DNA of 64,000 bases. Source: Candidatus Heimdallarchaeota archaeon. Lineage in GTDB: Archaea > Asgardarchaeota > Heimdallarchaeia > JABLTI01. Positions 27,509 to 46,644 of this stretch are shown piece after piece (the stretch's first letter is position 1; the number at the start of each line of letters is the position of its first letter). A program made the position numbers and the translations under genes. The stretch spans positions 96,101-160,100 of the forward strand of contig JAUWKS010000002.1 in the NCBI GenBank assembly GCA_030614005.1, given 5' to 3'. The notes beneath the pieces are model-generated. The model was not told where the DNA came from and did not search any database. It saw nothing but the letters and a program-made list of their open reading frames with translations.

Positions 27509-27608
27509 ATTAATGTAATATATATTTAATATATATTATTTATCTATTTAAACGCTTCGCTGAGAATATTTATATTTAAATTTAATTAGTACAATATAGT
27601 GATGTGCT
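27509..27608. promoter_or_regulatory. Divergent promoter region, cassette 2
   Basis: 100 nt AT-rich spacer between the Cas7-like gene and the AbrB-like gene. Confidence 0.25.
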
Positions 27609-27785
27609 TTGGCAGAAAATGATGAAGCGGTGTTAATTTATTTCAAAAGAAAAGTAGGTAAAATTGGTGACAGTTTACATATTACAATACCTAAAGAAAT
27701 CGTAGAGGCTCTAGACATTAAACAGGGAGACACTTTGGGAATTTTTGCAAAGGATTACAAAACAATCGAAGTGAAAAAACAATGA
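27609..27785 (+). CDS. AbrB/SpoVT-family DNA-binding protein, copy 2 (probable TTG start)
   Basis: In-frame translation LAENDEAVLIYFKRKVGKIGDSLHITIPKEIVEALDIKQGDTLGIFAKDYKTIEVKKQ, homologous to 2912-3100. It is below the 60-aa ORF cutoff and has no ATG. The TTG at 27609 follows a stop. Confidence 0.5.
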   Translation: MAENDEAVLIYFKRKVGKIGDSLHITIPKEIVEALDIKQGDTLGIFAKDYKTIEVKKQ

Positions 27786-28231
27786 GTTTAACAACAACTG
27801 AATGGATAACAATAGGATTTAGTATAACCAATACACTACTTGCTTTTGCAGTTTTCATATATATATGGTATACAAACAAGACAAAAGGTCCTAGAATATC
27901 TATTGTTGATTATATCTCAAGAAAAATGGATTCTGATGAGATAACTATTAATTTTCGATATGTAAATAGTGGAGATACAAAAACTATTTTGATTTTTACT
28001 GGGTTTATTGAATTTAGAGATCAAGCATTTGAAAGTTCAGTTACAAAAAAAGAAGCAATAAGTCCAGTAAAAGAGATACAACAAAATCATGTACATTTTA
28101 AAAATTCACTTCCGCAAGGGGGGATTGTAATCGATGAGACAATATTACAAATTAGAGGATATTATTTTGATCATAATGGAAAGAAGAAAAAATTAAAACA
28201 AAAACCAATTCAACTAAATGAAATAAAGTAA
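27782..28231 (+). CDS. Membrane-anchored hypothetical protein
   Basis: 149 aa with an N-terminal TM helix. Its start overlaps the AbrB-2 stop by 4 nt. Confidence 0.4.
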   Translation: MSLTTTEWITIGFSITNTLLAFAVFIYIWYTNKTKGPRISIVDYISRKMDSDEITINFRYVNSGDTKTILIFTGFIEFRDQAFESSVTKKEAISPVKEIQQNHVHFKNSLPQGGIVIDETILQIRGYYFDHNGKKKKLKQKPIQLNEIK

Positions 28232-28282
28232 ATTTCGTGGTGTTCTTATTTTTCGTACAAATAAAGCTAAGAGGAACGAGAC

Positions 28283-29857
28283 TTGACAGTACTCAATTGG
28301 CAGAATGATCCAATATACTTTGATGATGTATCTAAAGAAGTCAATCACTGGATAAATGCCAATGAGTTGATGGAAAATAATCGACAAGTGGAGATCTTTC
28401 TTCCAAACACAGAAACACTCAATCTTTTCCCGATCCTAGTACGAAGAGCGGATTTTCTCCGGGTAAACTCTTCCGATCGCATCCTTGCCAGGTTGCCTTT
28501 CATACAGCTTACAGAGAAGGAAAAGGTACTATTCAAAAACCAAGAATTACTCGTATCCGAAAAATTGCGTGATTACTTTTACCAATCTGATAATCGCAAG
28601 ATCCTTGAGTGGCGAGACATCCTTCGGAACTATCTTGAGCGTGGAGCCATTCCTTTACCGTTCTTCCGTTGTTATCCTGATGAGTGGGGGCTCGATTTCC
28701 AAGACCGAATCCTTGAATTCTCTCGAGGGGAAACTTTTGCAATGCCTACTAGGTTAACTACTGAGCTTGCTTATCTTTGTGGCATGGTCAATGGTGATGG
28801 CAATCTCACTAAATATGTTCTCAATATTGTTGATTATTCCATTGAAAACATTCGACAGTTAAAGGAACAGTTCGAACGATTATTCCAACAAACAGGAAGG
28901 ATTCAACTACAAACGGAGAATTGCCCAAAACTCATTATTACTAATCTCTGGGTTGCACGTTTATTTTCCTTTCTTACGGATCAACCAATTGGTGGTAAGA
29001 AGTACAGTAATTTACGTGGACCACTACTCTTTCTAGAGCAACCCTTACGTTCGCACTATTGGTCGGGAGTTATGGATGCGGATGGAAGTTATACTAATAG
29101 AAACATTACATTTACAAGTGCAAGTAAAAATTATACGCAAGATTTTATCTCATTTATGAAATCAATAAGTATTCTAGCAAAACAGTATTCGAGAAATGAT
29201 GGAACGTTTCAAGTATATATTTCAAGAAAATTTCATGATATATACAAGTCACAATTATTATGTTTACACCCTGAAGAGAAATTACAATTTAATAAATTAC
29301 AAAAGGGAATCAGTAAAAACTATGGTGTACGAATCAGAAAAAAATTTGTTGATTTTGATAAAGATAAGATGATAAACGGTTTTTTTGACTTTAGATTCCT
29401 TACACAAGTCCATATTATTGGCTTAGGAGATTTTCTTCGAATCGAAAGAGAAACTAAAACCTTAAAGTCCTTTTCAAAAGAATTAGGAGTGAGTGATAGT
29501 TTTCTCTCAATGCTTGAAAACGAAAGAAGTGCAATACCAATTGAATTATTATTGAAAATCCTTCAAAGAAAAAATAAACAATTAATGCATTTTCTTTTGT
29601 TAAATAAACAACACATTCTCTATAGAAAGGGAAGTTCCAAACCTATTAAATTAAATTTGAAACCTAACAAAGAGCTTCTCTATTTGGCTACAAAAATGAC
29701 TTTCCACAAAGCTTCTATTAGTTTACCTTTAAAAAAGCAAGATTTACAAGATAAAATTACAGACCGTTTTGGAGTTATTATAAAGAAAAATAGAATTGAT
29801 AATAAATTACTTCTCTATTATTTTACTACTTTTTGTAAGCTAAAAAAAATTGATTGA
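28283..29857 (+). CDS. LAGLIDADG-motif protein with C-terminal HTH, paralog 1 (TTG start)
   Basis: 524 aa with two LAGLIDADG-like motifs (LAYLCGMVNGDGNL; HYWSGVMDADGSY) and a C-terminal XRE-like HTH (KELGVSDSFLSMLENERSAIPIELLLKIL). Paralogs at 31689-33260 and 46645-48273. Confidence 0.6.
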   Translation: MTVLNWQNDPIYFDDVSKEVNHWINANELMENNRQVEIFLPNTETLNLFPILVRRADFLRVNSSDRILARLPFIQLTEKEKVLFKNQELLVSEKLRDYFYQSDNRKILEWRDILRNYLERGAIPLPFFRCYPDEWGLDFQDRILEFSRGETFAMPTRLTTELAYLCGMVNGDGNLTKYVLNIVDYSIENIRQLKEQFERLFQQTGRIQLQTENCPKLIITNLWVARLFSFLTDQPIGGKKYSNLRGPLLFLEQPLRSHYWSGVMDADGSYTNRNITFTSASKNYTQDFISFMKSISILAKQYSRNDGTFQVYISRKFHDIYKSQLLCLHPEEKLQFNKLQKGISKNYGVRIRKKFVDFDKDKMINGFFDFRFLTQVHIIGLGDFLRIERETKTLKSFSKELGVSDSFLSMLENERSAIPIELLLKILQRKNKQLMHFLLLNKQHILYRKGSSKPIKLNLKPNKELLYLATKMTFHKASISLPLKKQDLQDKITDRFGVIIKKNRIDNKLLLYYFTTFCKLKKID

Positions 29858-29975
29858 AGAAATAAATTATAATATTTCAGAAACAATAGAAGTGAATTGA
29901 TTACTAACTATTTTTGAAATAAACTATTGGGTATTAGATATTAACTGTATACAACAACACAATAAAAACAATTCT

Positions 29976-30056
29976 AGCCATCTGCCCGTTACCAGGTTTC
30001 GCTATTGATGTTCTAGCGGTTATTTTTATTCGCTTAAATGTTCGAGAGACGTTCAT
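29976..30056 (-). pseudogene. Truncated Cas7-like gene remnant (N-terminal ~27 codons only)
   Basis: Reverse translation MNVSRTFKRIKITARTSIAKPGNGQMAR matches the N-terminus of 26729-27508 (MFVSRTFKRIKITVRTSIAKPGNGQMAR) with ~85% nucleotide identity, after which the homology ends. An AbrB-like gene lies divergently 124 nt away. Confidence 0.5.
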
Positions 30057-30407: not shown

Positions 30408-31163
30408 TTATCCATCCAATTTCAACAATTCGAGTGTTTCAGCATCCAGGAGGGTTTCTAATTTTTCCAATTCTACTGTTACGTTTTCTCCTACTTCTTG
30501 ATAGTGACAAAGGGTACAATATGCTTTTAGTGGAACATCCTTAATCTTGATATGATATAATCCTTGACGATATTTGTAAGCTTCACCAGAATGCTTTGCT
30601 TCTAAAGTTTCGGATCTGCATAGAGGACATTTCTTTATATTGTATTCTTCTGGTTTTATTGTTCGAATCGATCGTAATTGCTTCTCCACCATATTGATGA
30701 TTTGTTCTTCTTGTTCCTCTACTTCCAAGCTAAATGATGTAGTCTTGCAAGTACTATTACTACATACTTGTGCAGGTTTTTGTTCTAAAATTAACTCATA
30801 GTTAGTACCTTGTATCCACGAGCTCACTGTTCTTTTTATCAATAATCCGTCTTTACACACATGACAGTATATACCCGTTCTTTTATCCACGTAAGATAAC
30901 AATTCAAGGATTGAGTCAAATTTGAGATTATATTTGGCATAATCAAAAATATTAATTTGATAATGAGTAATTGTATTTCTTAGGGTTCGCAAAGCATTTC
31001 TATCTTGTGGGGTTAATGGGGACCCCTCTAATTTTCTTTCATATTTCGTTAGTAATGCGTCTTTTTGTTTTTTTGTAATATATTCTTTTTTAAGAGCATC
31101 TTCTATAATTTCTCTAAATTTCTCCTCTTCTTTGCCTGCGAATATTTGTGTCATTTCTCTCAC
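30408..31163 (-). CDS. Zinc-finger protein, hypothetical
   Basis: 251 aa containing several Cys pairs (CHVCKDG; CSNSTC; CPLCRS; CTLCHY). Confidence 0.4.
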   Translation of the reverse strand: MREMTQIFAGKEEEKFREIIEDALKKEYITKKQKDALLTKYERKLEGSPLTPQDRNALRTLRNTITHYQINIFDYAKYNLKFDSILELLSYVDKRTGIYCHVCKDGLLIKRTVSSWIQGTNYELILEQKPAQVCSNSTCKTTSFSLEVEEQEEQIINMVEKQLRSIRTIKPEEYNIKKCPLCRSETLEAKHSGEAYKYRQGLYHIKIKDVPLKAYCTLCHYQEVGENVTVELEKLETLLDAETLELLKLDG

Positions 31164-31290
31164 GGTTTTTTGGGGTTAAATGGTTAATATGGTTATTGTG
31201 TTTACTAGTAAGTAGTTATTTAAATATTTCCTACACATGTGTAAAATAAACATACACAAGTCTTAAATAGTTGTCCCCTTCTGTAAAAGT

Positions 31291-31605
31291 ATGAACAATT
31301 TGAGAGAAAAGGTAAAAGAGTTTGCTATTCGCTTTCAGAGAGGACATGGAGAGCTTCGTTGGAGAGAGCGAAGTATACCACCAGATGAAATTGAGGATAT
31401 TGTTCGACAATGGGATGTTATTGACGACACAAAAGATGGACGGTACTTGTTATGGGGGGAGTTAGATAATAAACGTATAATACATATACCTTGTTTTCTG
31501 GACATGCAAACTAAAATAATATGGGTACTAACAGTTTATTATCCGGATGATGAGAATTTCACAATGGAATCTAATTATAGAGTAAGGAAAACGATAAGCA
31601 AATAG
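31291..31605 (+). CDS. DUF4258-like (toxin-like) protein
   Basis: 104 aa; FAIRFQRGHGELRWRERSIPPDEIEDIV...RIIHIP...IIWVLTVYYPDD fits the DUF4258 pattern (hA..Rm.eR.I...ei..vl ... vITvy.P). Pattern-level call. Confidence 0.4.
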   Translation: MNNLREKVKEFAIRFQRGHGELRWRERSIPPDEIEDIVRQWDVIDDTKDGRYLLWGELDNKRIIHIPCFLDMQTKIIWVLTVYYPDDENFTMESNYRVRKTISK

Positions 31606-31688: not shown

Positions 31689-33260
31689 TTGACGGTACTC
31701 AATTGGCAAACGGATCCAATTTATTTTGATGTTGAGGATAAACCGGTCAATCAATGGATAAATGCCAATGAGTTAATAGAAAGCAATCATAGAGAAGAGA
31801 TCTTTCTTAATAGCATTAGTATTCTCAATCTGTTTCCTATCCTCGTTCGCAGGGCTGATTTTGTGCGGGAAAACCATTCTGACCGTATCCTTGCCCGTTT
31901 ACCATTTGTGCAGCTAACTGAGGAGGAAAAAGAATTTGTCAGTAATCAAGATCTTCTCGTCGCTGAGAAATTGCGTGATTATTTTTATCAATCGGATAAT
32001 CGTAAGATCCTTGAATGGAGGGATGTTTTGCGAAAGTATCTCGAGCGAGGTGCTGTCCCCCTGCCCTTCTATCGCTGTTTTCCGGAAGACCTCGAACTTA
32101 ATTTCCATGAAAGAATCCTTGAATCCTCTCGAGGGGAAACGTTTGGTATGCCCACTACTTTGACTAATGAATTAGCCTACCTTTGTGGTATGGTCAATGG
32201 TGATGGTAGTCTCACTAAATATGTCCTCAATATCATAGATTATTCCATAGAAAATATTAGACAACTAAAAGAACAGTTCGAGCGATTATTCCGGCAAACT
32301 GGTAGAATTCAGATGCAAACTGAGAACAGCCCTGCTTTAATTATCACTAATCTTTGGGTTGTCCGCTTTTTCTCGTTTCTGACAGATCAACCAATAGGAG
32401 GAAAGAAATATCAAAATCTTAGTGAACCACTCCTTCTCCAAGAACAACCATTCCGTTCCCATTATTGGTCTGGTGTGATGGATGCAGACGGGAGTTATGC
32501 AAATGGAGGAATTTCTTTTACTTCTGCCAGTAAACATTATGCAAAGAAATTCAGTGATTTTCTGGAATCACTGACAATAAAACCAACTTTTTTTGACCGT
32601 CCAGATAACACTTTTCGAGTTTATATTCCTCGAAAGTTCAATTTATTGTATAAGAGCAAAATGTTTAGTTTCCATCCTGAAAAGAGATTAGAATTCCAAA
32701 AGCTGAAAGAAGGAAGAGAGAAAAAAGCTAAAGTAACATATCTATTTCAAGAATTTAATCAAAATACTATGAGAAATAATTATTTTGATTTTAGTTTAAT
32801 GATAGACATACAAGTCACTGGATTAGGAGAGTATCTAAAAGAAACTCGAAATAACTTAACTCAACATGAATTTGCTCAGAAAATAGATGTAAGTACGAAG
32901 ACACTTCAATTGATGGAAAAAAATAGAAGTGCAATTTCCCTTAATACTCTAGAAAAAATTCTGTTAAAGCAAAAAAAATCCTTGATGCAATTTTTAATGT
33001 TCTATGGACGTCAAATCCAATTTAGAAGATTTAGAGCTCCACCAGTGTTTCTTGATTACAGACCATCTAATCAATTGAAATATTTTGCTAAAAAAATGTT
33101 GTTTTTTAAAAATCATATTCGAATTGATAGCAAAGATAAGAAATTGAATTCCCAAATTGAAAATCATTTTGGTATAAAGATAGAAAACAATGTCATTAAC
33201 AATGGGGTTATTAGATACTTTTTCAAAACATTTTGCAATCTTACAAAACAAGAAGACTAG
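31689..33260 (+). CDS. LAGLIDADG-motif protein with C-terminal HTH, paralog 2 (TTG start)
   Basis: 523 aa, collinear with paralog 1 (LAYLCGMVNGDGSL; HYWSGVMDADGSY). The N-terminal third is ~80% identical to paralog 1 at nucleotide level. Confidence 0.6.
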   Translation: MTVLNWQTDPIYFDVEDKPVNQWINANELIESNHREEIFLNSISILNLFPILVRRADFVRENHSDRILARLPFVQLTEEEKEFVSNQDLLVAEKLRDYFYQSDNRKILEWRDVLRKYLERGAVPLPFYRCFPEDLELNFHERILESSRGETFGMPTTLTNELAYLCGMVNGDGSLTKYVLNIIDYSIENIRQLKEQFERLFRQTGRIQMQTENSPALIITNLWVVRFFSFLTDQPIGGKKYQNLSEPLLLQEQPFRSHYWSGVMDADGSYANGGISFTSASKHYAKKFSDFLESLTIKPTFFDRPDNTFRVYIPRKFNLLYKSKMFSFHPEKRLEFQKLKEGREKKAKVTYLFQEFNQNTMRNNYFDFSLMIDIQVTGLGEYLKETRNNLTQHEFAQKIDVSTKTLQLMEKNRSAISLNTLEKILLKQKKSLMQFLMFYGRQIQFRRFRAPPVFLDYRPSNQLKYFAKKMLFFKNHIRIDSKDKKLNSQIENHFGIKIENNVINNGVIRYFFKTFCNLTKQED

Positions 33261-33688
33261 CTTAATTAGGATTATTTTAAGTAATGTTATTAGAAAAAAG
33301 TAAATAACTTATAGCTCTGCTATCGCAGATTCGCGGTCACTACAAGCCCACTTACAGTGGTCTTGCTTAACGTTCTAGCGCGAGATTCTATTAAATACTA
33401 TATCTCAAAAGAAAAAATGATGAATAAAAATGAGTAGTGGTATGTTCAATACAACAAGAATAAAAACTTTGGAAAGTCAATTAAAAGAAGTTATAGAAAA
33501 GCTCGAATTACTTGAGAAAAGAATTACAGCACTAGAATCCAAGTGAAATTTTTCTACAAAGTTTATTTGTTTTTTAAATAGAAATGCAATCCGATGAAAC
33601 TAATATACAAGAGGGGTTTATTTAGTCAGGAGAAGGGCTAAGAAAGGGAAAAAAGGCATTCTTAGAGCGGAGAGAGTGGGTAAAAGAA

Positions 33689-33803
33689 TCGGATTTCGGA
33701 ATTTTTTACTAGTGAACGAAAAAAGCGAAAAATAGAGTATAAGGATGTCAGTTTTCGGATTTTTTTACGGGTATTTTTTGGGTATTTTGGAATTTTTTAC
33801 GCG
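33689..33803. repeat. Iteron-like direct repeats upstream of the Cas1-like operon
   Basis: Three copies of TTT(C/T)GGA(A/T)TTTTTTAC lie at 33694-33709, 33753-33768 and 33785-33800. Two gggtattttt(t)g sub-repeats sit between them. The region lies 50-160 nt upstream of the operon's first gene. Confidence 0.4.
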
Positions 33804-33853
33804 TTTAGAGGTTTATAATCAATATTTCTTAGTGAGTATTTGGAGTAATCTTT

Positions 33854-34639
33854 ATGTCGGTTAAGAAAAGTCTTATCTTGATGGAGGGGGATAGGTATAG
33901 TTTCGCTGAGTTGAACATCAACGTTAAACTCACTCCTGTTATGGAGGAGGTGCTATGGACTCTCCAAGTGTTGTTTATCCTACTTTTCACATCATCTTTT
34001 ATCAATATAGTAAAATTTCTTTGTCGGTTTTTGAACCGTTCACCTAAAGCTATTGGTTCTACCTTGCAATCCCTTGCAGATCTTGGTCTTATTGACTATT
34101 ATCGTTCTGGTCGCAGTCGAGTGGTCAAACTTCACTTCGAACACCCATTTCTTGCAAGTTCTCTGTTCCGGTTCTTTGGTTTCAATACCTGGTTACTAGA
34201 CCAAAAGAGTGCAATAAGCGAGGGTGACCATCATCTCTTTGGCTTTCTTCCATCAGAGAAGAATGTCCAAAAGTTCTTTGCTTTCCTGCAACTAAAAGAA
34301 CAACAGCTAGATGCTAAGATTGCTGATTATCAAGAGTGGATTGATTGGGTGCTGAAAGTAGAATATACAGTAACTACTGCAAAAGATGTCCTTGTTGAAG
34401 ATTCAGAAGAGACGGCTGAACATCCTATTCATTTGTTCGCTGAGGAGATCGTCTCTCGAATTAAACAAGCAGAAGTTCCTCAAGTAAACCATCTAGACAT
34501 CATAAAACTCACTAATGTTATTCTCTCTGTTTTTGCTGATTATCGAGAGGAACCACCCTGGATTGACGAGGCCTATCTCCGGCAACAAGCTTTTCTGAAA
34601 GGTGACGAACAATTGGAGGGATTGTATGAGAACAAATAA
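33854..34639 (+). CDS. Winged-helix-containing hypothetical protein (first gene of Cas1-like operon)
   Basis: 261 aa with a wH-like segment (KAIGSTLQSLADLGLIDYYRSGRSRVVKL). It overlaps the next gene by 38 nt. Confidence 0.4.
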   Translation: MSVKKSLILMEGDRYSFAELNINVKLTPVMEEVLWTLQVLFILLFTSSFINIVKFLCRFLNRSPKAIGSTLQSLADLGLIDYYRSGRSRVVKLHFEHPFLASSLFRFFGFNTWLLDQKSAISEGDHHLFGFLPSEKNVQKFFAFLQLKEQQLDAKIADYQEWIDWVLKVEYTVTTAKDVLVEDSEETAEHPIHLFAEEIVSRIKQAEVPQVNHLDIIKLTNVILSVFADYREEPPWIDEAYLRQQAFLKGDEQLEGLYENK

Positions 34640-36626
34640 GAACGAGCTCCGTGATTTGGTTGCCTCTTGGGTGGATGCCCTTGATGGTCCTGCTCAAGCT
34701 GTCTCGAGTAAGGAGCTTACTATTCGTTTAGATAAAAGTCATTCTCACATTTGTCAGATTTTACGAACCCTTGCTGTTCAGGGAAGAATTACCTATATCA
34801 ACGGCAAGCGTTCTCTTGACCGTTCTGTTCGACTATATTATAGTGCTGAATGCTCTACTGAAGAAGAAAGTTCATTTTGTAGCCGTCCCACTTGTGGCTC
34901 TTGTCAGTGGTTATCGGAAATCCAGAGATGTATCTTATTGGATCTTGTTTTTGAAAGCAATCCTTCTGTTTTACCACCCGAGTTGAAACTAAGAGCTTAT
35001 GTACAGGAAATACCGCTTAATGCCCCTTGCTGTGATCATTTCGATAAACGAGTTGCAGGGCAAGTAAAGAGCAGACATATGTCTCGTTTTATTCGTGAGA
35101 ATACTGATGGTTCACTCTTTCTTTGTCCAATTGAACGTTGTCGTCAAGTTATCGATGAATTCAGTTTCTACCTTCAAACTATCAATCTTGGTTCTAGTAC
35201 TTTTTATTGTCCTCATTGTGGCAGCCCAATGGTCTTTGGGTATGATGAACGGTTTGATGATTATCGCGTCTTTTACTGGGATAGTCATTTTGATATCCTT
35301 CAGCAGAGCTTTTTCGAGTTAACTGGTACAACACTAACTCGAGAGAAGAAGCAAAAGGATGAAGTAAAGGTTGGTATATCCATCATTAAACCGAACAGTT
35401 TCACTCCTGATACTAAACTAGAGAATTTGTTTATTGGTAGCAAGACCTCTCCGGAAGAATTGGTATTCTCCAAAGATTTGACCTTCTTTCCATTTAGAAA
35501 AATAGGTTATATCTACTCCAAGCATTGGGAAGATTATTTCACACTCAAAGACTCATTGCATCCCATTGATCCTGTAAAAGGACGGAAGCTCTATCAAAAT
35601 ATCGAATTATTTCCTCCTATTGATCCAATAAAAAGTGTTGAACCTATTGCTCGAGAGGTTGGTGGAAATGAATTACTCATTGCTAGTGGTTTTCTTACTT
35701 TCCCATCTTTTCAGGCTAATCTGACCACTCGAGTAGCTTTGATTGAATCGAAAATAAGAGAATTTGTTGATTTGGATCTGAAAGGATTCTTTACTGAATC
35801 TCTTCAGCAAATGAAAGATACTATACGCAGCTACCAACACTTACGTGTTCTAGATCACTTACAATGGCAAAGATATGAAGGAGGAGTTAGTAGTTTAATG
35901 ATCGAAGCTCTTAAGCGCGAAGCACAGAAATATGGCTTTCTTACACCTGCCCGATCGAAATCTCGTATGGTACGTTATGATCGTTTTCTTCCTTTTGGCT
36001 TATATTATGCTCGTTCTGCTTATGATTCTTTAATCAATGGTGTCAATCATGTTATCACAACAATTTTGAAAAAAGACATCTACAATGAAATCTCTCTTGC
36101 GTGGGATGGATTACGTGGTTGGTGTCACAGAAAATACCCTATTGGTCTCTATTTAGATACTATTGAACAGGCGAAAATTATTGCTTGGCTTTGGATCCAT
36201 GAAGCAATACGAGACAGAGAAATTCAACCCAGTGATTTTCAAATCAGACGAGGAAAACGATATGAACTGTATTACTGCGTAATTCCGAATTCGAATCTTC
36301 ATACACTCATCAGAAAGATTGGTTTACAGGCACTGAAAACAACCATTCGCTTAGCAACAGGTGAAAGTATGAGTCTGAAACGAACATATGAGAAATATCT
36401 GAAACAGCAGAAAGAACTCATAAACAAATTTGCTATTCATTCTTCAGAATTATTATGCACTAATTTATCGGAAAATAAGCAAATCACTCTCTGGAAGAAA
36501 TTAGAGCAAACCAAGAATAGAGAACTATTAACCTACCAAGAACTACAACAATTACATTCATTCTCTCAAGAGTTCTTTACTAACGAGTTTTCTTTCGAAC
36601 CTTTGGCAATAGTTGAGGTGTGTTAG
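34602..36626 (+). CDS. Winged-helix + Zn-finger + Cas1-like integrase-fold fusion protein
   Basis: 674 aa. There is an N-terminal wH (HICQILRTLAVQGRITYINGKRSLDRSVRLYY), then several Cys pairs (CSRPTCGSC; CCDH; CPIERC; CPHCG). The C-terminal ~250 aa align to Cas1 core motifs. These are MIEALKREAQKYGF (E-site, cf. EGxAAR.YF), SLINGVNHVITTIL (cf. NALLSFGYTLL), ISLAWDGLRGWCH (cf. GLDPYLGFFH catalytic His) and LYLDTIEQAKIIAWLWIHEAIRDREIQPSDF (cf. LALDLMEEFRP..LVL.LLNRRELTADDF, catalytic Asp). Alignment was done by eye. Confidence 0.5.
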   Translation: MTNNWRDCMRTNKNELRDLVASWVDALDGPAQAVSSKELTIRLDKSHSHICQILRTLAVQGRITYINGKRSLDRSVRLYYSAECSTEEESSFCSRPTCGSCQWLSEIQRCILLDLVFESNPSVLPPELKLRAYVQEIPLNAPCCDHFDKRVAGQVKSRHMSRFIRENTDGSLFLCPIERCRQVIDEFSFYLQTINLGSSTFYCPHCGSPMVFGYDERFDDYRVFYWDSHFDILQQSFFELTGTTLTREKKQKDEVKVGISIIKPNSFTPDTKLENLFIGSKTSPEELVFSKDLTFFPFRKIGYIYSKHWEDYFTLKDSLHPIDPVKGRKLYQNIELFPPIDPIKSVEPIAREVGGNELLIASGFLTFPSFQANLTTRVALIESKIREFVDLDLKGFFTESLQQMKDTIRSYQHLRVLDHLQWQRYEGGVSSLMIEALKREAQKYGFLTPARSKSRMVRYDRFLPFGLYYARSAYDSLINGVNHVITTILKKDIYNEISLAWDGLRGWCHRKYPIGLYLDTIEQAKIIAWLWIHEAIRDREIQPSDFQIRRGKRYELYYCVIPNSNLHTLIRKIGLQALKTTIRLATGESMSLKRTYEKYLKQQKELINKFAIHSSELLCTNLSENKQITLWKKLEQTKNRELLTYQELQQLHSFSQEFFTNEFSFEPLAIVEVC

Positions 36627-37338
36627 TGGAGAAAGGAATATGAGCAATACAACTATAGAAATAGAGAATCCCCTGCAAAATTTGCATGAGAAGATCATTT
36701 ATCTGATTCAAAACAAGGACTTCAAAATAACAAAAGAAAAAAATCAAAGAATTCTAAGTGAAGCTATCAAGAAAATTGCTCAAAATGGATTTTTAAGAAC
36801 ACATGCTTTTCTTCACAATTGGTTGAGAGAATTTTTCGAAGAAGGAGAACTAACGAGTAAAAGCTTACTGAATATACGCTCTTCACTTCCTTGGTCCTGG
36901 GATCAGACCAAGAAGTATTTTGATGCACTTGAAAGAAATAAGGTATTGATTTACTCTCGAGACTCCATTGGGAAAAAGATTTGTACTCTCACTATTACAG
37001 ACCATTTGGGAGAGGGTGTAAATAGTATTCCAACCCAAGAGCTTCGGTTATTCTATTATCTAAAGTATCAGAAAAACATACCAACAGATGAATTTGCTAA
37101 TCTAAAATCGAGAATTGGAAATTACTATTCAAAACTAGAGAATTTTGAACAAATGAAATCAAAAGTAGAGAAAGAAAAAGAGAAATTTCAATCCACTGAG
37201 ATGAATCATATAAAATTGCTTGCAGAAGAAATTGCTACCTTTTATTGGCACAATAGAACAAAGAAGGGAATAGTCAATGATATAGAAGAAATGTTAGTGG
37301 AAAGACCAACAACCATCTTTTCTTTGGAATACAGGTAG
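36613..37338 (+). CDS. Hypothetical protein (possible winged-helix), third gene of operon
   Basis: 241 aa; overlaps its upstream neighbour by 14 nt and the downstream gene by 1 nt, so it is operonic. No recognisable Cas2 features. Confidence 0.4.
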   Translation: MRCVSGERNMSNTTIEIENPLQNLHEKIIYLIQNKDFKITKEKNQRILSEAIKKIAQNGFLRTHAFLHNWLREFFEEGELTSKSLLNIRSSLPWSWDQTKKYFDALERNKVLIYSRDSIGKKICTLTITDHLGEGVNSIPTQELRLFYYLKYQKNIPTDEFANLKSRIGNYYSKLENFEQMKSKVEKEKEKFQSTEMNHIKLLAEEIATFYWHNRTKKGIVNDIEEMLVERPTTIFSLEYR

Positions 37339-38096
37339 TGAGAGTTATGGTTGTACTTGACTATGAAATAAATTTGAGTAAAACAGAATACTTGTATTAT
37401 CTTGAGTGCCCACAAAAATTCCGTATACATCGAATACTAAATCCAATTCCATATAAGACAACTTTCATGAATACAAAAAGAAGCACTTCTAGTTATGTTC
37501 TGCGTAATTATGATGAAGAAAATTTGAATGGAATATTCAAACATTCATTCTTTGAAACGTTTCATAAAAAATATTGGAATAGAATCACTGAACCAGAAAC
37601 ACCAAAAGAAATTGCTAGCAATCAAATAAAATTATTCTATTGGTTGTATCAACAAAGAAAATATTTCGAAGATTCTGATTACTGGATACCTGTTCAAACA
37701 GAATTACGATTAATGACAGAAAGACAGAGAGGGATAATCGATTGTGTGGAATTGTGTAAGAATAAAAATGGATTAAGAATAATTGACTATAAATCTGAAC
37801 CACATCAAAGTGATATGCTAGCACTGATATTCTATGCAAACTTGTTTAACACCTTTAGAGCTGAAGACAAGGAATATGATGAATACTTGTATGATGTTGT
37901 AGAGATTGGTTGTTATTATTATATATCAGGAATTGAGAGAATCTTTGAATTAAAAGTAGATAATCTATTATCTTTTCAAGAAATTTTCCAACGGATACTC
38001 ACTGAGATTTCCCAAGAGAAATTTCCATTAATCGAAACTTCTTGTTGGAATTGTAAATTAATAGATGTTTGTAAAATTGAGAAAAGAAGAAGGTAA
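37338..38096 (+). CDS. Cas4-like PD-(D/E)XK nuclease with 4-Cys Fe-S cluster signature
   Basis: 252 aa with an N-terminal Cys (YYLECPQKF). RecB-type motifs GIIDCVEL...RIIDYKSE follow (hhhD..E ... hhDhK). A C-terminal CWNCKLIDVC supplies the remaining three Cys, matching the Cas4/AddB C-x(n)-CxxCx5C arrangement. Confidence 0.5.
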   Translation: MRVMVVLDYEINLSKTEYLYYLECPQKFRIHRILNPIPYKTTFMNTKRSTSSYVLRNYDEENLNGIFKHSFFETFHKKYWNRITEPETPKEIASNQIKLFYWLYQQRKYFEDSDYWIPVQTELRLMTERQRGIIDCVELCKNKNGLRIIDYKSEPHQSDMLALIFYANLFNTFRAEDKEYDEYLYDVVEIGCYYYISGIERIFELKVDNLLSFQEIFQRILTEISQEKFPLIETSCWNCKLIDVCKIEKRRR

Positions 38097-38427
38097 TATA
38101 ATATAGACTCAAAATCTTCAATATAGTAAATATTTATACTAGTTATGTTCTTCGTAAGGAAAAATAATTTATTCAAAAAATTTCAATATTTTTCTTATAA
38201 TAAACCATATAAAAACGAAATTATTGATGACTTGCTTAAATACAATCTCTCATTTGAAAGAACAAGACGGAAAATTAGGTGTAATTGCTATAATTTTAGG
38301 TGAGGATATGCATCTAACGCCAGGCTATTTCTATAGCACAATGTTCTTTGAGTTTCCTTCTAGAATATGGAGAAATGTTGATTTATTAATTCGATTTATT
38401 AAACGAAGAATTGAACGATAGGATTTA

Positions 38428-41400
38428 ATGTTTATCAATTTAAAAAAAATGAAAATTTATATAGACGAAAATTATATCTTATTTAACTTGGAATCATCTA
38501 AACAAGAGAAGGATAATATCAAAATGGGAATTCATTTATTTTGTGGAAATGCTTCTGACAGAGAGCATGAATGGGAACAATTAGTAGAAATCTGTGAAAC
38601 TATTCATCAAGGATATGATGAAGATAAAGAAATTTACCTACTATATAATTTTGAATTACCTAATCAATGTCAAATTGATCTTTTAATAATACAAGAAAAA
38701 GGCATCAGTATTCTGGAATTTAAAAAACACAAGGGAGTGATTATTGGGAAAGATGATGAAGGAACAGAGTGGTTTGTAATAACTGATAATGGAAATACCC
38801 CACTAAGAAGGAATCTCTTTGAGCAAATTAAGAGAGAACGTAGAGAAGTAACAAAGAAATTATTTGAAATCAAAAGAAAATTACACCTCCAAATGAAACC
38901 AAAAAATCTTGGCAAAGTTTATGCATGGGGTTATTTCCCAAAAGAGAGTGAATACGATAAGTCTCAAGTTTCAGATGAAAATAAACTCTGGTTTGATGTT
39001 ATTACTAGTAATTCACTACTAAAAAAATTGCGTTATGTAAACACAGATTATAAATTATCTAGTCAGAACATGAAGGACATTACAGATAGATTTGAATTAG
39101 AACCTTACTCTGGATTTGATACAAGATTGTATTTTATATCATCTGAAGTCGTTGATAAAAAATGGAATACTAATTATCTGAAAATTGCGAATGATTTCCT
39201 TCAAAATGAGCTAGAGAAAAAATCAACTCTAATCTACTCTATTGGTTTAGGAGAACCAGTATCTTATACACCAATTAAAGTAGCATTCCAAGTTGCTATG
39301 AACCAACACGGTGATAAGGCCGTTGACCTTGATATCAATTTTATACTTAGAGAATTAACAAAAAAATTAGATGATGAAGAAAAATTCAAACCAATCCTAA
39401 TAACATCCGAAGGAGGTTCAGGTAAAACTTCACTATCAAGACAATTATTCTTGAAGACATCCAAAAAATTCATGCGAGGAAATCTAGATTATCTCCCCTT
39501 TCTTGTACAGCTATCTAATTATGGTTCATCGAAGTTAAATTTTAAGGAATGGATTCAAAATCTAGTGAGTGAACTGGAATTATTTGGTAAAAATTCTAGT
39601 GCAATTTTTAGGCATATGTATAGAAATGGAATGCTCCTTTTTCTTGTTGATGGATTAGATAATTTACCTCAAGATCAAAGAAATGAACTTAATCATTGGC
39701 TAATTGAAACACGAAAGTTTGGGAATAGATTGTTTATTACTTCTAGACCTTATGTTGAACCCACTTCTGAGCTGAAGGTCGAAAGATTGACTATTTTACC
39801 ATTAACATTAGAAATAATAGAAAATTTTATTGAAAACAGACAAAAGAACAAGAAATTGCTTAAGACGATTCTTCATAAAATAAATTCAAATTATAACCCC
39901 TTACTATTTAATCCATTCTATCTTGATCTTATTGCTTCACTAGATCCAGAGGAATTTCCTGACGATGAAATCTCATTATTTGATAAATGGTTAATTGGAA
40001 TAGAACATAAAGAGAGTTATTTAAAGGAAAATATAAGCGCTGTAGAGAAGCTTGCTTTTGAATATTGTTTTCCAGAGAGTAACGCATTTTCAAGGGATGA
40101 AATAAAAAGTAAAACTGATGATAATGATATTTTTAGACCATTAGAGAGAGCTGGTTGGATAATGCCAACTAATTCTTATTTACATAATAAATTCGTTTTT
40201 ACTCATGATAGGTTGAAAGAATATCTAGCAGGGAGATTTGTATGGAACAATTGGGAGAAATCAAAGAATGAGATATATCTAAAGGAAAATAGTTTACTAC
40301 ATTTCCTCGAATCCAATAAAATTTTTGAATATGCTTTCCTTTTTGGAAAGCATTTACATGAAGAAGAGAAGATTGCAGAAAGAATTACCGATATAATTGG
40401 TGAAGTTGAGTCTCTAAGTGGTGATGTTGGAACTGTTGTTTTACGAGCACCATTTTTAGGTTTCTATCTAGCAGGTTGTATGGGACTAAAAAATAAAACA
40501 TGGTATTTAACTATTGAGAAATTTATCAAAGATAGCTGGTTTGACATAATTGAAGACCTAATTGGTAACAAACCAAGAACCACATATCTTCGCTATATTT
40601 TCAAGAGTGTTTGTTTAGCTATGTTACATATCAAACCTTGGACAACTATTCTACCTAAAGGAATGAAGAAATTATACACTAAGAGTTCATTAAAAAAGAT
40701 GGATAAAGAAATTGAACCAGAAAATAAAATCACTCCTTTCAAACAATGGTTGTTGATAGCAAATTCAGTTAAGGATATTCAATCAGAAGTTTTCCATAAT
40801 TTTGTTAGAACAGGTTATGAACTAGCTTGTACAAAAGAAAATGAAACGGAATTCTTTAGAACATTGAACAAATTACAATTTTCTCCTAACTATAAGACTT
40901 ATGCAAATCATTTTGTTAGCGATTTTGAAACAGAATTAGGTAAGTGGTATGCAGCAGCTAAGATTTACATCAATTACTATCCTGAAGAACTAAAATCATT
41001 TTTTATTAGTTGGACAATTTCAGAAGATACTATTTCTTTAAGAAATTCAATTGATCGTTGTGAATATCTATCAAATTACAAAGATCTATTTAGCGACATA
41101 GTTGCACAAGTAATGTATAGTTGGCTAAATGCACATGATTCTGAAATTCGAATTTTAGCTATTAACATGCTTGTTCGGAATCATTCAAATTTGAGTTTCG
41201 ATCTCGATGAACGCCTTTCTGAATTGCTAGATGAAAAGGATTATGATAAATGGCTAGATGTATCCAAGAAAAGATTCCACACTGAATGGGAAAAGGATTC
41301 CATAAAAAATTTGAGATTGTGGATTTATAGAAAACATGCTTTAGAAGAAGTATACCAAATTTTTAGACATAAATTTCGATTATTATATCTGGAAATTTAC

Positions 41401-43671
41401 GAGTATTACAAGGAATCTTTAGAATTAAATGATGCTATTTTTTTAGCCAATCATGTTCCACATTTTGATGAATGGAAAGGACCTGTTATTGAAACTCTTG
41501 AAGAGATGAACTCCAGATTTAATTCCATAGAGATTTCTCAAATAATAGAAGACACCAAATTTAATTTATTAAGTTTAGATGAAATACATTATTATTTGAA
41601 AGAATTTGATACATTGGATGAGTATAAAAGATCAAATATTGTTGATAAATTAGTATATTTTCAAAAATTGGAAAAAAAAGAGGTTTATCCGTTTCTGGAG
41701 TATATTGTTAGAAATAATTCCTCTGGTGCTCAGCTTGTTTTTACACAGCTTATTAAAGACAAGAACTACCCCATTGAGAAAAAGCATCAGCTATTAGACA
41801 ATGCTATGAAGGATAGTGACTGGGTGTCATTTTATAACTTTATGAATGGCATTTTTCTAAATAACCCCTCTATTCTGAAAGTTGAAAGGTATCTAGAGTT
41901 TTTGCTTAAAAGTGAATATCCGGTTTTCAGATTTCTAGGTGTAAATGCATTATTCTTCTCTGAAAATACTTTACAAGAAAAACGGCTAGATGGAATTTTA
42001 GCCAAAGAGGAGAATCCAAATGTAATTGCTGCAGCTATTAGAATTAAAGCACTAAGTGGAGGATTAAATTTCGATAATGTTATTAATTTCTTTAATTGGA
42101 AATTTCAATTCAAAAGAATGTATATGAAAGAAATTAATATTGGTGCTACAAGAGATATTGAACTTACAGTTATCTCCACACCAATGAATGAAGATCTTAA
42201 ATTTGAAATAAAGAATAGAATGTATTCCTTTGGAATTGCCACTAATCATTTTACTTCTTTTCTGCAGACATTGCATACAAAATACGGATACAAAAAGAGT
42301 AAAATGTATCCCTTTGATATAATTAAAAAACTTAGACAAAAAGAGAATTTGAAAGATATTGAATTTGAAATACCAAATTGGTTAATCATTGGATTAAAAA
42401 ACAAATATGAACCTCTAATTAGAGCATCATTGGTATACTTGATTGCATATTTAATGGAAATAAAATCGATAAATGTAAATACTATTGTTGAGCTCATCAA
42501 ACCATTAGATGAACACGATGATAAAGAAATAAAAGCATATAGTAAATTTCTTCTATCATTGTATCAAGAAGGTTATTTCCTTAATTGTTTAAATGAAATA
42601 TCCGAATTCACAAATATAGAACAATTAGCTCTCATATGGTCAATTTCACTAAATACAGATTTTAGTGTTCATAGAAAAATTTTCAAAATACTACCTTCAC
42701 TATCTGAACGTATAAGAGAGTTATATTTCTCTTTTATACCTCAAACCAATGAGTTATTCTATTTATACTTAGAGGAAATTACAAAAAATCCAACAGTTGC
42801 TTATCCAGAGTATGTCTCACAATTTGAAAAACATAAATGGGGATTCTCACCAAGAAAGGAGTATATTCCTGGGAGAGATGTTCTATTCACTTGGAATTAC
42901 GTTTTTGCAGATTCAATTATTTGGACTCACATAAAGAAATCTCTTAATATAAACCCAAATGATAAACCATATCCTGAAGATATAATTGATAAATCAATGA
43001 ATTGGTTATCAAAATTGAATACTCAACCATTTGATATTTTGGGTACAAAAATATATCAAATTATCGAAGAAATGTTAGATTCAAAAGATTCAATTATTTG
43101 TTCCCTTGGAATATTATTATCATCCATGACTAAAAAATTTCCAAAAAATTTCTCATCAAAGATAAATAATGAAAGCTGGGTTAAAGCTAATATTTATTCT
43201 TTATTGATGTTATTTGATGATTTACCACTCGATAATTCTTTAAAGATTATTCAAATTGGTTTGAAATCAAATCATCCAATAAATGTCTATTTGGCATTAA
43301 AGTGTATAAAATTAGAATTTGGATTCAAAAAAGTAATCGAATTATTGGATAAGAAGCTATTACAATTTGGCTTGCACAATGATCTATATTATCATGATAA
43401 TCGAATCAAAATCATTGAAGCTATTCGTTTATTCTGGAAGGAGAATTGTAATCAATTACTGAAAGAAGATTTTGATTTTGTAATGAAATGGGCTGCTGAG
43501 ACAAATAGAATCATTTGGTTATCATGGGAACAAATTCAACGTAATACTTTGTTTGATATTCTAAATTGGTCTCTTGAAAATGAAGAGAACCAAAACTTGT
43601 ATTGGACTATTACCCATGTTTTATTTAGCAGAATTTGGTTCTCAAAAGGACTGCCTTGGAATAAAAGATGA
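38428..43671 (+). CDS. NERD-domain + STAND (NACHT-like) NTPase with long C-terminal helical-repeat region (Avs-like antiviral ATPase candidate)
   Basis: 1747 aa. The N-terminus matches NERD (CQIDLLIIQEKGISILEFKKHKGVIIGKDDEGTEW). Walker A ILITSEGGSGKTSL and Walker B LLFLVDGLDNL are present. The remaining ~1200 aa are helical-repeat-like. Confidence 0.6.
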   Translation: MFINLKKMKIYIDENYILFNLESSKQEKDNIKMGIHLFCGNASDREHEWEQLVEICETIHQGYDEDKEIYLLYNFELPNQCQIDLLIIQEKGISILEFKKHKGVIIGKDDEGTEWFVITDNGNTPLRRNLFEQIKRERREVTKKLFEIKRKLHLQMKPKNLGKVYAWGYFPKESEYDKSQVSDENKLWFDVITSNSLLKKLRYVNTDYKLSSQNMKDITDRFELEPYSGFDTRLYFISSEVVDKKWNTNYLKIANDFLQNELEKKSTLIYSIGLGEPVSYTPIKVAFQVAMNQHGDKAVDLDINFILRELTKKLDDEEKFKPILITSEGGSGKTSLSRQLFLKTSKKFMRGNLDYLPFLVQLSNYGSSKLNFKEWIQNLVSELELFGKNSSAIFRHMYRNGMLLFLVDGLDNLPQDQRNELNHWLIETRKFGNRLFITSRPYVEPTSELKVERLTILPLTLEIIENFIENRQKNKKLLKTILHKINSNYNPLLFNPFYLDLIASLDPEEFPDDEISLFDKWLIGIEHKESYLKENISAVEKLAFEYCFPESNAFSRDEIKSKTDDNDIFRPLERAGWIMPTNSYLHNKFVFTHDRLKEYLAGRFVWNNWEKSKNEIYLKENSLLHFLESNKIFEYAFLFGKHLHEEEKIAERITDIIGEVESLSGDVGTVVLRAPFLGFYLAGCMGLKNKTWYLTIEKFIKDSWFDIIEDLIGNKPRTTYLRYIFKSVCLAMLHIKPWTTILPKGMKKLYTKSSLKKMDKEIEPENKITPFKQWLLIANSVKDIQSEVFHNFVRTGYELACTKENETEFFRTLNKLQFSPNYKTYANHFVSDFETELGKWYAAAKIYINYYPEELKSFFISWTISEDTISLRNSIDRCEYLSNYKDLFSDIVAQVMYSWLNAHDSEIRILAINMLVRNHSNLSFDLDERLSELLDEKDYDKWLDVSKKRFHTEWEKDSIKNLRLWIYRKHALEEVYQIFRHKFRLLYLEIYEYYKESLELNDAIFLANHVPHFDEWKGPVIETLEEMNSRFNSIEISQIIEDTKFNLLSLDEIHYYLKEFDTLDEYKRSNIVDKLVYFQKLEKKEVYPFLEYIVRNNSSGAQLVFTQLIKDKNYPIEKKHQLLDNAMKDSDWVSFYNFMNGIFLNNPSILKVERYLEFLLKSEYPVFRFLGVNALFFSENTLQEKRLDGILAKEENPNVIAAAIRIKALSGGLNFDNVINFFNWKFQFKRMYMKEINIGATRDIELTVISTPMNEDLKFEIKNRMYSFGIATNHFTSFLQTLHTKYGYKKSKMYPFDIIKKLRQKENLKDIEFEIPNWLIIGLKNKYEPLIRASLVYLIAYLMEIKSINVNTIVELIKPLDEHDDKEIKAYSKFLLSLYQEGYFLNCLNEISEFTNIEQLALIWSISLNTDFSVHRKIFKILPSLSERIRELYFSFIPQTNELFYLYLEEITKNPTVAYPEYVSQFEKHKWGFSPRKEYIPGRDVLFTWNYVFADSIIWTHIKKSLNINPNDKPYPEDIIDKSMNWLSKLNTQPFDILGTKIYQIIEEMLDSKDSIICSLGILLSSMTKKFPKNFSSKINNESWVKANIYSLLMLFDDLPLDNSLKIIQIGLKSNHPINVYLALKCIKLEFGFKKVIELLDKKLLQFGLHNDLYYHDNRIKIIEAIRLFWKENCNQLLKEDFDFVMKWAAETNRIIWLSWEQIQRNTLFDILNWSLENEENQNLYWTITHVLFSRIWFSKGLPWNKR

Positions 43672-43704
43672 TGATATTTACGAACATTCAAATTTACACC
43701 CAAG

Positions 43705-44184
43705 CTACAATTGAAATGGTATTAGATAATAGCTTAGTTCAATGGTTCCACCCAATTTTGGATAGTTTATGCTTTGCAATATAATTTTGTTCGTTTCGAC
43801 AGTGATTGGAGTTATTAACTTCATTGAGTTTTTACCCACCATTTTTGTTATCAAAACTATATAGTAGCTTTCATTTACCAGTTGCTCTCCATAAACTACA
43901 AATGCAGTTAGGTTATCGTAGATGTATGTTCCACGTGGGTTTAAACTGGCAGGGTACTCTTGATAGCCAAATTGTGCATTTGATCGTATTTTGAAATCAT
44001 ACCAAATTGATCCACTAAAACTATCGCTTATATTTAGATCCACTATTATCATTGATAATTTCTGCATCTTATCCTGCTGGTTCTGATAATATGAATTCAC
44101 ACTGACTGGTATGACTATCGAACTAACAACCACTATTCCTACTATTGAAAAAAACAATATCTTTGTTTTCTTTTCTCGATCCAT
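43705..44184 (-). CDS. Small secreted/membrane-anchored hypothetical protein
   Basis: 159 aa with an N-terminal signal/TM (ILFFSIVGIVVVSSIVIPVSVNS). Confidence 0.4.
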   Translation of the reverse strand: MDREKKTKILFFSIVGIVVVSSIVIPVSVNSYYQNQQDKMQKLSMIIVDLNISDSFSGSIWYDFKIRSNAQFGYQEYPASLNPRGTYIYDNLTAFVVYGEQLVNESYYIVLITKMVGKNSMKLITPITVETNKIILQSINYPKLGGTIELSYYLIPFQL

Positions 44185-44832
44185 ATGAAGTTCTCTCCTA
44201 GGCTATACTTTGTTCATCTGTTATATTAATCTTTTTTTTATAAAGTTGAATTTTTTTCTAATTATCTTTTTATCCGGTTATGTTTCTTACTTTATCCATT
44301 TTCGAGCTGAACGAGCTCTACGATATAGCATTGCTCATGCTGAAGAATAGATGCATCTCAGCTTCCCTAGTAGGTTGGAGTTTTCCTCTTTTCCTTACCG
44401 ACGTTGAGAATATTTTCCACCTAAATAAGAATTCAAGCGGATTGCAGAAGGAGGAAATACAGTAAAAGTGGGAAACCAACACCAAAAGCAAGTAGGGATG
44501 CAAATGAAACAAAATATTTCACCCATTTCTTTGTTACTGTTCTTACATATCCGGCCGATCTTCTCGAGATAGAATATTTCCTAAATTGCCAATTTGTTAA
44601 AGGTGTTACCGGTGGATCATATTTCTTTCCTTGTGGTTTTTCTGTAATGCTTAGTAAATGATTCCAAGTTTTCACTTGTAAAATACATCGATACTCTTCA
44701 AATGGGCTATAACCAAGTTCTTGGTCCTTCGTTTTGTTGTAGTATTTTTCCCCTTTCTTTTCTATTTCTGTGAATTCATGTCCGGGAGCTTCTATTGTTG
44801 ACCGTTCCTTTTTTTATGGACAAATAGGACAT

Positions 44833-46473: not shown

Positions 46474-46644
46474 TTTTTCTTCGCGTTTACTGTTGTTTAG
46501 CTAGATATAATTAAATTCTCTAAGGAGATTACCGAAAGTATTAGAGATTTGTTTAAAAGAATAGTTGAACGAATAGCTAAACGTACAGCTTTTCTAAGAG
46601 GTATTTAATAAAGGAAGTGGGAATAACCTTCTAGGAGAACAGCT

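Follow-up and report, generated by a model that had tools for sequence, protein, structure and literature searches.

A putative Cas1-Cas4-like integration cassette with a LAGLIDADG meganuclease partner in a Heimdallarchaeota genome

Cas1 is the integrase of CRISPR (clustered regularly interspaced short palindromic repeats) memory and of casposon transposition. More Cas1 diversity has been reported from Asgard archaea than from all other prokaryotes combined, and we know of no member of this diversity that has been characterised. The work of Makarova et al. (2020), as summarised in PMC8730458, portrays an unprecedented diversity of Asgard Cas1 homologues, some of them located in putative mobile elements, as well as the array-less Asgard system ARAMP, in which diverged Cas5 and Cas7 proteins occur together with a distinct form of Cas1. 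According to the summary in PMC12669027, ARAMP is typically associated with PD-(D/E)XK or HNH nucleases, and aCas1/ARAMP has been predicted either to serve in non-programmable defence or to be a novel type of mobile element (PMC8730458; PMC12669027). In addition, Asgard transposons that combine aCas1 with TnpB were described, which are often flanked by repeats and in which a “WhiA/meganuclease-like” cargo protein was noted; aCas1 was proposed to act as their transposase (Altae-Tran et al., 2023; PMC10691335). Here, we report on an aCas1 locus of Candidatus Heimdallarchaeota archaeon (GCA_030614005.1). The stretch of DNA that was analysed, referred to as the window, comprises 64,000 nt of contig JAUWKS010000002.1 (positions 96,101 to 160,100, forward strand; ~33% G+C), and the locus is centred on four genes at positions 33854-38096 of the window, which code for a Cas1-like protein (aCas1), a Cas4-like nuclease and two further proteins.

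As far as the two summaries outline aCas1 and ARAMP, the locus resembles them in its extremely diverged, Asgard-restricted Cas1, in its distinct Cas4/PD-(D/E)XK nuclease and in being array-less, and a further likeness to ARAMP is seen where diverged type III-like RAMP genes adjoin the cassette (in the window and in the homologous loci L006 and L010). This kind of system is already known from computational work, and it is quite probable that the family of the cassette is among those described by Makarova et al. (2020); the Cas1-type activity of the present locus is predicted from sequence. We favour the reading, at a probability of about 0.55, that the locus belongs to the Asgard aCas1 systems and represents an integration module, which would be a sedentary or domesticated relative of mobile elements rather than a machinery for spacer acquisition. 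The window is informative in that it presents the aCas1 family locked in a conserved six-part cassette (meganuclease, operator-like triple repeat, two winged-helix proteins, aCas1 and Cas4), while a sister aCas1 gene about 10 kb away sits in a freshly inserted TnpB element bounded by terminal inverted repeats (TIRs). New details are an obligatory meganuclease partner with intact catalytic residues, the conserved spacing of the triple repeat, an ultra-conserved 75-nt element, the sharp limits of the cassette and the co-resident sister element; the triple repeat and the 75-nt element find no mention in the summaries PMC8730458 and PMC12669027. Since the cassette and the sister element share one window, concrete test substrates are at hand, namely the TIR, the triple repeat, the 75-nt element and a 78-nt duplication described below. 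If active, aCas1 enzymes would bear on the origin of CRISPR adaptation from mobile elements and could yield integrases for genome engineering.

The four genes are located on the plus strand. Taken as the longest possible open reading frames (ORFs), they comprise ORF1 (33854-34639; 261 aa), a predicted winged-helix DNA-binding protein, aCas1 (34602-36626; 674 aa), ORF3 (36613-37338; 241 aa), predicted to consist of a winged helix followed by a long helical C-terminal half, and the Cas4-like, putative Fe-S PD-(D/E)XK nuclease (37338-38096; 252 aa). They overlap by 38, 14 and 1 nt, in agreement with a preliminary description of the window that was made from the sequence alone. The starts of homologues (MRT in P0001, MSNTT in P0038 and MVVLDYE in orthologues, respectively) place the likely starts of aCas1, ORF3 and the Cas4-like gene at 34626, 36640 and 37347, resulting in a 14-nt overlap followed by gaps of 13 and 8 nt; the operon is tight under either set of starts. 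The order ORF1-aCas1-ORF3-Cas4 is kept in more than ten independent Asgard loci or contigs, which indicates that the four ORFs are genuine genes, and in nine loci as well as in the window a WhiA-like gene precedes them (WhiA-like, ORF1, aCas1, ORF3, Cas4). The functional unit is larger than the four-gene operon described earlier: the full unit of ~6.3 kb consists of the gene for this LAGLIDADG-helix-turn-helix (HTH) meganuclease, the triple repeat and the four genes. A distant subfamily (E~1e-31) lacks the LAGLIDADG gene but codes for aCas1 and a PD-(D/E)XK nuclease along with two proteins of ~234 and ~217 aa, the former occupying the position of ORF1 and the latter lying between aCas1 and the nuclease. 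As the four-gene core is kept at this distance, it can be considered ancient.

The 674-aa protein is predicted to be a Cas1 homologue that is extremely diverged and has retained its catalytic residues. It combines a winged helix (residues ~13-81; 34638-34844) and a Cys-rich Zn-ribbon region (~98-226; 34893-35279) with a complete two-domain Cas1 fold (~255-620; 35364-36461), in which an N-terminal beta domain is followed by a C-terminal alpha-helical catalytic domain carrying an intact E-H-D-E/D metal site. The residues of this site, E426, H509, D519 (ten residues past H509) and E522, occupy positions equivalent to E141, H208, D218 and D221 of E. coli, and they are kept in 17/17 aCas1 sequences from very divergent subfamilies (E or D at positions 426 and 522), in which R451, R455, N479 and G506 are invariant as well. 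Motifs present in the protein are YEGG (containing E426), INGVN (N479), D502-x3-G-W-C-H509 and AIRDREIQPSDF. The Cys region contains a CPx4C...YCPHCG zinc ribbon, the pairs C98/C101, C175/C180 and C203/C206 and the single residues C110 and C144; between the winged helix and the Cas1 part, C98, C110, C144, C175, C180, C203 and C206 are invariant.

Support for the Cas1 assignment comes from profile comparisons. A domain profile of the C-terminal 370 residues, built from 17 divergent aCas1 members, retrieved the casposase 6opm_A as its best sequence match in the PDB (E=5.4e-6) and aligned the family block G-x-C-H...L-D-L-x-E with the casposase segment GFLHEMAPSKNSLAYDLQEPFR (motif GFLH...YDLQE). 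Family member P0037 (family E=1.3e-4) exceeds the gathering score of Pfam Cas_Cas1 (34.7 vs 22.3 bits), and it is only through P0037, i.e., transitively, that the family reaches this curated threshold. P0025, P0034 and P0035 match PADLOC Cas1 models. Based on these profile links and on the conserved metal-site positions, the alignment of the C-terminal half to Cas1, which the preliminary description had made by eye, was essentially right, and the motifs that it quoted were found. A word-indexed search yielded ten aCas1 clusters, the two named ones stemming from Gerdarchaeota and Heimdallarchaeota metagenome-assembled genomes (MAGs), and when 1.84 billion representatives were searched exhaustively with an HMMER profile, the number rose to 29. 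The family is rare, and its identifiable members are Asgard archaea. One giant protein of 3922 aa (P0032) contains nine tandem copies, at a spacing of 260 residues, of a segment that matches positions 291-361 of the aCas1 profile and corresponds to the linker joining its beta and helical domains.

The 252-aa product of the last gene matches Pfam PDDEXK_1 (E=1.3e-9; 38.8 bits vs a cut-off of 22; positions 2-247/247) and thus displays the RecB-type PD-(D/E)XK motif of the Cas4 family. Across ten aligned orthologues, C21, D132, D147-x-K149 and Y163 do not vary, while C233/C236/C242 (CxxCx5C) are present in nine, forming part of the conserved C-terminal CWNCKLIDVC; the four Cys residues correspond to the putative Fe-S ligand pattern of Cas4. 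Cas4 models match 8/10 family members (best 9.5e-8), and all top-ranked PADLOC families are Cas4. The 252-aa product itself gave a weak match to the Cas4 profile (E=0.013) and none in NCBIfam, and a search of the PDB with the family profile gave no sequence match. The Cas4 signature recognised earlier is supported by the PDDEXK_1 match, the Cas4 models and the conserved Cys residues. The preliminary description was to fall if a Cas1 profile match and the E/H/D triad, or the RecB nuclease fold, were missing; all of these were found.

Residues 56-97 of ORF1, whose orthologues are present in all loci, gave weak matches of the winged-helix type (HVO_A0114, 0.0085; ArsR/SmtB, 0.026; MarR_2). ORF1 and ORF3 were considered as paralogues, and this was rejected as no pairwise similarity was detectable. 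Similarly, ORF3 was considered as a substitute for Cas2 by fold. Its structure was modelled from database homologues, and the low-confidence model shows a winged helix and additional helices and no ferredoxin fold.

Compared with the Cas1-Cas2-Cas4 complexes of CRISPR adaptation (type I-C / I-G; PDB 8D3P, 7MI4), the cassette lacks Cas2, an array and a leader, and its Cas1 lies below Pfam detection and carries a 250-residue N-terminal DNA-binding extension. None of the operon products matched Cas2 in Pfam, NCBIfam or PADLOC, and neither TRF nor a repeat finder detected a CRISPR array across the 64-kb window, which bears out the absence of both that had been noted earlier.

The fifth conserved gene of the cassette (31689-33260, plus strand) codes for a 523-aa WhiA-like protein, a two-domain LAGLIDADG meganuclease fused to HTH_3 (Pfam matches LAGLIDADG_3, 3e-7, and HTH_3, 6.5e-7). 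A tblastn map placed a gene of this type (~525 aa) immediately before ORF1 in all informative loci (L001, L004, L006, L007, L008, L009, L010, L012 and L014). The catalytic Asp of both LAGLIDADG motifs (GDG / DADG) is kept in 11/11 WhiA-like proteins, which suggests that the protein is probably an active meganuclease. Bacterial WhiA likewise consists of two LAGLIDADG domains followed by a C-terminal HTH; it is generally held to have lost its catalytic acids, whereas the WhiA-like proteins of the cassette have kept both. Unlike the genes of homing endonucleases, the WhiA-like gene is not situated within an intron or intein.

Three direct repeats, TTTnGGAwTTTTTTAC, are located between the WhiA-like gene and ORF1 (33689-33800, plus strand; starts 33689, 33748 and 33780), with a longer consensus of TTTnGGAwTTTTTTnnnAGT and the core TyGGAwTTTTTTAC matched at 33696, 33755 and 33787. 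They had been described as iteron-like, and it is confirmed that three copies exist: the motif has three matches in the 64 kb, all within 105 nt, where 0.54 would be expected by chance. The spacing of 59+32 nt is identical in the window, L006, L002 and L001; it is 58+32 in L007, and L009 exhibits the first 59-nt interval only. A TATA-like TTTATAAT (33812-33819) is found just downstream. The repeats are presumed to be operator or binding sites for one of the winged-helix or HTH proteins.

A GC-richer, ultra-conserved non-coding element of ~75 nt is also located between the WhiA-like gene and ORF1 (33300-33386, plus strand). The copies in the window, L006 (8656-8745), L004 (8359-8446) and L014 (~3975-4060) are identical to nearly 100%, at loci where the neighbouring proteins are 34-74% identical. 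The remaining aCas1 loci lack the element, and only two metagenome contigs carry it. It matches no tRNA or Rfam family, and its fold z-score of -1.2 to -1.5 is no better than that of shuffled sequences. The tRNA-like gene of the preliminary description could not be recovered, as neither a tRNA (ARAGORN) nor an Rfam family (gathering thresholds, then relaxed E-values) was detected in the window; the patch taken for it is probably this element. Another possibility considered was an RNA gene split by a LAGLIDADG-bearing intron, with the element as its 3' exon. This was rejected because a conserved 5' counterpart upstream of the WhiA-like gene is missing, the fold z-scores are unremarkable and most aCas1 loci lack the element. 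A small conserved ORF of 38 aa follows (33430-33546, plus strand), which aligns with L006 and L004, a 39-aa gene being called there in L004; its heptad-like pattern of Leu, Ile, Glu and Lys may be read as a coiled-coil.

The ~6.3-kb block behaves as a discrete cassette in differing chromosomal contexts. In pairwise comparisons of the loci, DNA similarity ends with the stop codon of the Cas4-like gene; its other limit, where visible (L007 vs L009), is ~200 nt upstream of the WhiA-like gene. The flanks vary by locus, comprising RNA polymerase genes, PCNA/GINS or TnpB. One MAG carries two copies of the cassette (L009 and L010), which are 84% identical. TnpB adjoins the WhiA-like gene divergently in L004 and L007 and is not adjacent to the cassette in the window, L006, L009, L010 and L012. 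The intergenic blocks between TnpB and the WhiA-like gene are shared by L004 (6560-6740), L014 (2170-2355) and L007 (7212-7400) and include the palindromic AGCT...TATATAGCT and CCGAAAGTAATAAT; they may be promoter elements or a transposon end.

The sister aCas1 gene is part of an 11.1-kb insertion (44815-55955) that is missing from L006. The insertion is bounded by a perfect 18-nt TIR, TATGGACAAATAGGACAT (E=4e-6; only two copies in the window vs 0.11 expected), with a target duplication of at most TA or TTTT. It contains TnpB (44833-46473, minus strand), a third WhiA-like LAGLIDADG-HTH gene (46645-48273), the second aCas1 of 1392 aa (48594-52772; domain profile E=4e-39) and a DEAD-helicase/MZB/metallophosphoesterase protein (52738-55914). 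The 1392-aa and 674-aa proteins share two collinear BLAST segments and the order winged helix, Zn region and Cas1. At the protein level, the second aCas1 is 43% identical to P0036, whose locus (L019) has the same gene set; no clear TIR was found at L019, where matches were weak, 13 nt long and AT-rich. With its second aCas1, TnpB, WhiA-like gene and TIRs, the element fits the description of aCas1-TnpB transposons (PMC10691335). The studied cassette differs from these in that TnpB does not adjoin it in the window and flanking repeats are absent at every locus.

Discrete limits, varied contexts, two copies in one MAG, TnpB neighbours and a TIR-bounded sister element all speak for a mobile ancestry of the cassette. 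Under the favoured reading of a sedentary integration module, the machinery would integrate DNA: the Cas4-like nuclease would trim DNA ends, and aCas1 would act in the manner of Cas1 and casposases, linking 3'-OH ends to a target through transesterification. The winged-helix/Zn module of aCas1 and the two winged-helix proteins might replace Cas2 in DNA recognition and architecture, and the triple repeats could serve as an autoregulatory operator for one of the winged-helix or HTH proteins of the cassette. The cassette would then be a sedentary relative of aCas1 transposons within an island of defence genes and mobile elements, sometimes positioned beside ARAMP RAMP genes.

A number of points weigh against this reading, and they concern the aCas1 protein, its mobility and its function. 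The direct sequence matches between the aCas1 of the window and Cas1 are weak. Pfam and NCBIfam give no Cas1 match for the 674-aa protein, and PADLOC Cas1 matches it at E=5e-4 over residues 488-602, a model that is matched by 6/11 core family members. PDB searches with the single protein or with the full-length family profile retrieve no Cas1. The AlphaFold2 model is of medium quality (predicted local distance difference test, pLDDT, of 70), and the loop containing H509 is poorly modelled (pLDDT <50). The enzymatic activity of aCas1 is a prediction. The missing matches would also be expected if the Cas1-like domain were a non-catalytic scaffold or the likeness spurious, leaving an operon of DNA-binding regulators and a generic nuclease, and loss of catalytic residues is known from the Group-1 Cas1-solo proteins (PMC9939771). 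Such an explanation is very hard to reconcile with four catalytic and four further Cas1-motif residues being kept in all 17 divergent sequences and with transitive profile links to Cas1 that are significant against 1.84 billion sequences, and we regard it as highly improbable.

As for mobility, no TIRs or target-site duplications (TSDs) were found within 1.5 kb of the cassette borders in eight loci, around which only chance-level repeat matches of 13-19 nt occur, nor beyond TnpB in L004 and L007. The window and L006 carry the cassette at one and the same chromosomal site despite ~27% DNA divergence, so that it has not been mobile recently, and members of the aCas1 family were not found on viral contigs (IMG/VR) or plasmids (PLSDB). 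These findings also weigh against the notion of an autonomous casposon-like transposon that is active at present, in which aCas1 is the transposase, the Cas4-like and LAGLIDADG nucleases help in excision or target cleavage, and the ends are too short or degenerate to be recognised. Identical, discrete limits in differing contexts, the association with TnpB, the sister aCas1 in a TIR-bounded insertion of the same window, the casposase as best PDB sequence match and the proposal of aCas1 as a transposase (PMC10691335) are all compatible with it. The same is true of the two copies in one MAG, some apparently frameshifted: at ~13087-13102 in L009 and ~11446-11449 in L010, tblastn divides a gene into two segments, namely the Cas4-like gene in one copy and aCas1 in the other, which suggests frameshifts, pseudogenisation or assembly errors. 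However, the two copies share only 84% identity, synteny of the cassette is preserved between diverged genomes, no TIRs or TSDs delimit it and it is not found on viral contigs or plasmids. A family-B DNA polymerase (PolB) is also lacking from the cassette in every locus, and the only PolB gene of the window (13875-16643, minus strand) is situated 15 kb upstream of the WhiA-like gene of the cassette and 18 kb from aCas1. An active transposon is therefore unlikely.

The comparison with casposons (family 2, Methanosarcina mazei, PDB 6OPM) bears on the casposase-like element proposed in the preliminary description: the Cas1 assignment is supported, and the TIRs, TSD and PolB that define such an element are missing. 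Both casposons and the cassette have a Cas1-fold integrase with conserved catalytic residues in the absence of Cas2 and an array, and in both the integrase has additional DNA-binding domains, i.e., a C-terminal HTH in the casposase and an N-terminal winged helix with Zn ribbons in aCas1. By contrast, the cassette has none of the PolB, TIRs and 14-15-bp TSD of casposons, and Cas4, two winged-helix proteins and the LAGLIDADG gene are its obligatory partners. The locus thus falls outside the definitions of both CRISPR adaptation and casposons, yet it is plausibly similar to them at the chemical step.

With regard to function, the target or substrate of an integration reaction cannot be named, and a RAMP pair adjacent to the cassette in three loci, together with the setting in a defence island, fits a defence role equally well. 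In the window, this pair (25734-27508, minus strand) is located 6 kb upstream of the operon and divergent from the cassette. It consists of a Csm3/Cas7-like RAMP gene (26729-27508, minus strand; 259 aa; Pfam RAMPs, 2e-7; PADLOC Csm3, 3e-5) and a partner gene (25734-26738, minus strand; 334 aa), and its synteny with the cassette is limited to L006 and L010. The earlier statement that an effector operon is absent was consequently correct only in part. The favoured reading has its main rival in a defence role exerted together with ARAMP. The cassette would then be the adaptation-like Cas1-Cas4 arm of an array-less, type III-derived ARAMP with an antiviral function, such as the capture or processing of invader DNA, without mobility of an element. 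Such an arm would account for the divergent pair immediately upstream of the cassette in these three loci, for the stable position of the cassette between the window and L006 and for a defence island that holds NERD-NACHT, a helicase-nuclease and toxin-antitoxin-like pairs. It would also agree with the summaries cited above, by which most ARAMPs include a distinct Cas1 and an association with PD-(D/E)XK nucleases (PMC8730458; PMC12669027). On the other hand, the cassette is RAMP-free in five of eight informative loci. No RAMP genes are found near it in L004, L007, L009 and L012, and L001, whose contig begins ~400 nt upstream of the WhiA-like gene, has only a fragment of the partner gene downstream. 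Moreover, two other RAMP pairs of the window are without a neighbouring aCas1, no array or other store of acquired DNA was found, and the fixed spacing of the triple repeat argues against an expanding mini-array. We consider this role possible and give it clearly less weight than a sedentary integration module.

Three paralogous units of a RAMP and a partner gene exist on the minus strand of the window (778-2873, 25734-27508 and 59365-61418), and only the middle one adjoins the aCas1 cassette. Their partner proteins comprise 334-379 aa, and both 379-aa partners have a zinc ribbon. The units look like multiple effector pairs of the ARAMP type in one genome region. A fragment of the 3' end of a RAMP partner gene is found at 44267-44415, at an insertion boundary.

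From 24.0 kb to >60 kb, the window and L006 are collinear except for three window-specific insertions, which indicates that the cassette is vertically stable here, though in an insertion hot spot. Apart from the TnpB element, these comprise region 38097-44383, located directly downstream of the Cas4-like gene and coding for a 1747-aa NERD + NACHT protein (38428-43671) and a 159-aa ORF, and a 2.47-kb insertion (27413-30050). The latter is flanked by a direct duplication in which 78 nt from the 5' end of the RAMP gene are repeated, the copies (27413-27490 and 29973-30050) being 88% identical and 2,560 nt apart. Its cargo consists of an AbrB/MazE-like ORF (~27610-27785), a 149-aa ORF and a WhiA-like gene (28283-29857); a MazE-family gene is also found upstream of the WhiA-like gene in L001. 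One could speculate that the aCas1-Cas4 cassette, with its LAGLIDADG meganuclease and its winged-helix proteins as “rulers”, is an integron-like engine for cassette capture, which would insert WhiA-headed toxin-antitoxin and defence modules into the island with a geometry unlike that of CRISPR and casposons. The 2.47-kb insertion and its 78-nt target duplication would be its footprint, and the 75-nt element a recognition site or RNA cofactor. We regard this scenario as improbable.

Upstream of the cassette, two divergent genes are found (30408-31605). The product of one, of 251 aa, has a Zn ribbon and a C-terminus that resembles YokU and is antitoxin-like; that of the other is a DUF4258 protein of 104 aa. 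Both genes are syntenic in L006, L001 has the 251-aa gene as well, and the two may constitute a toxin-antitoxin system attached to the cassette. Farther upstream, the PolB gene precedes an array (17368-25311) of paralogous beta-helix/NosD proteins that look secreted.

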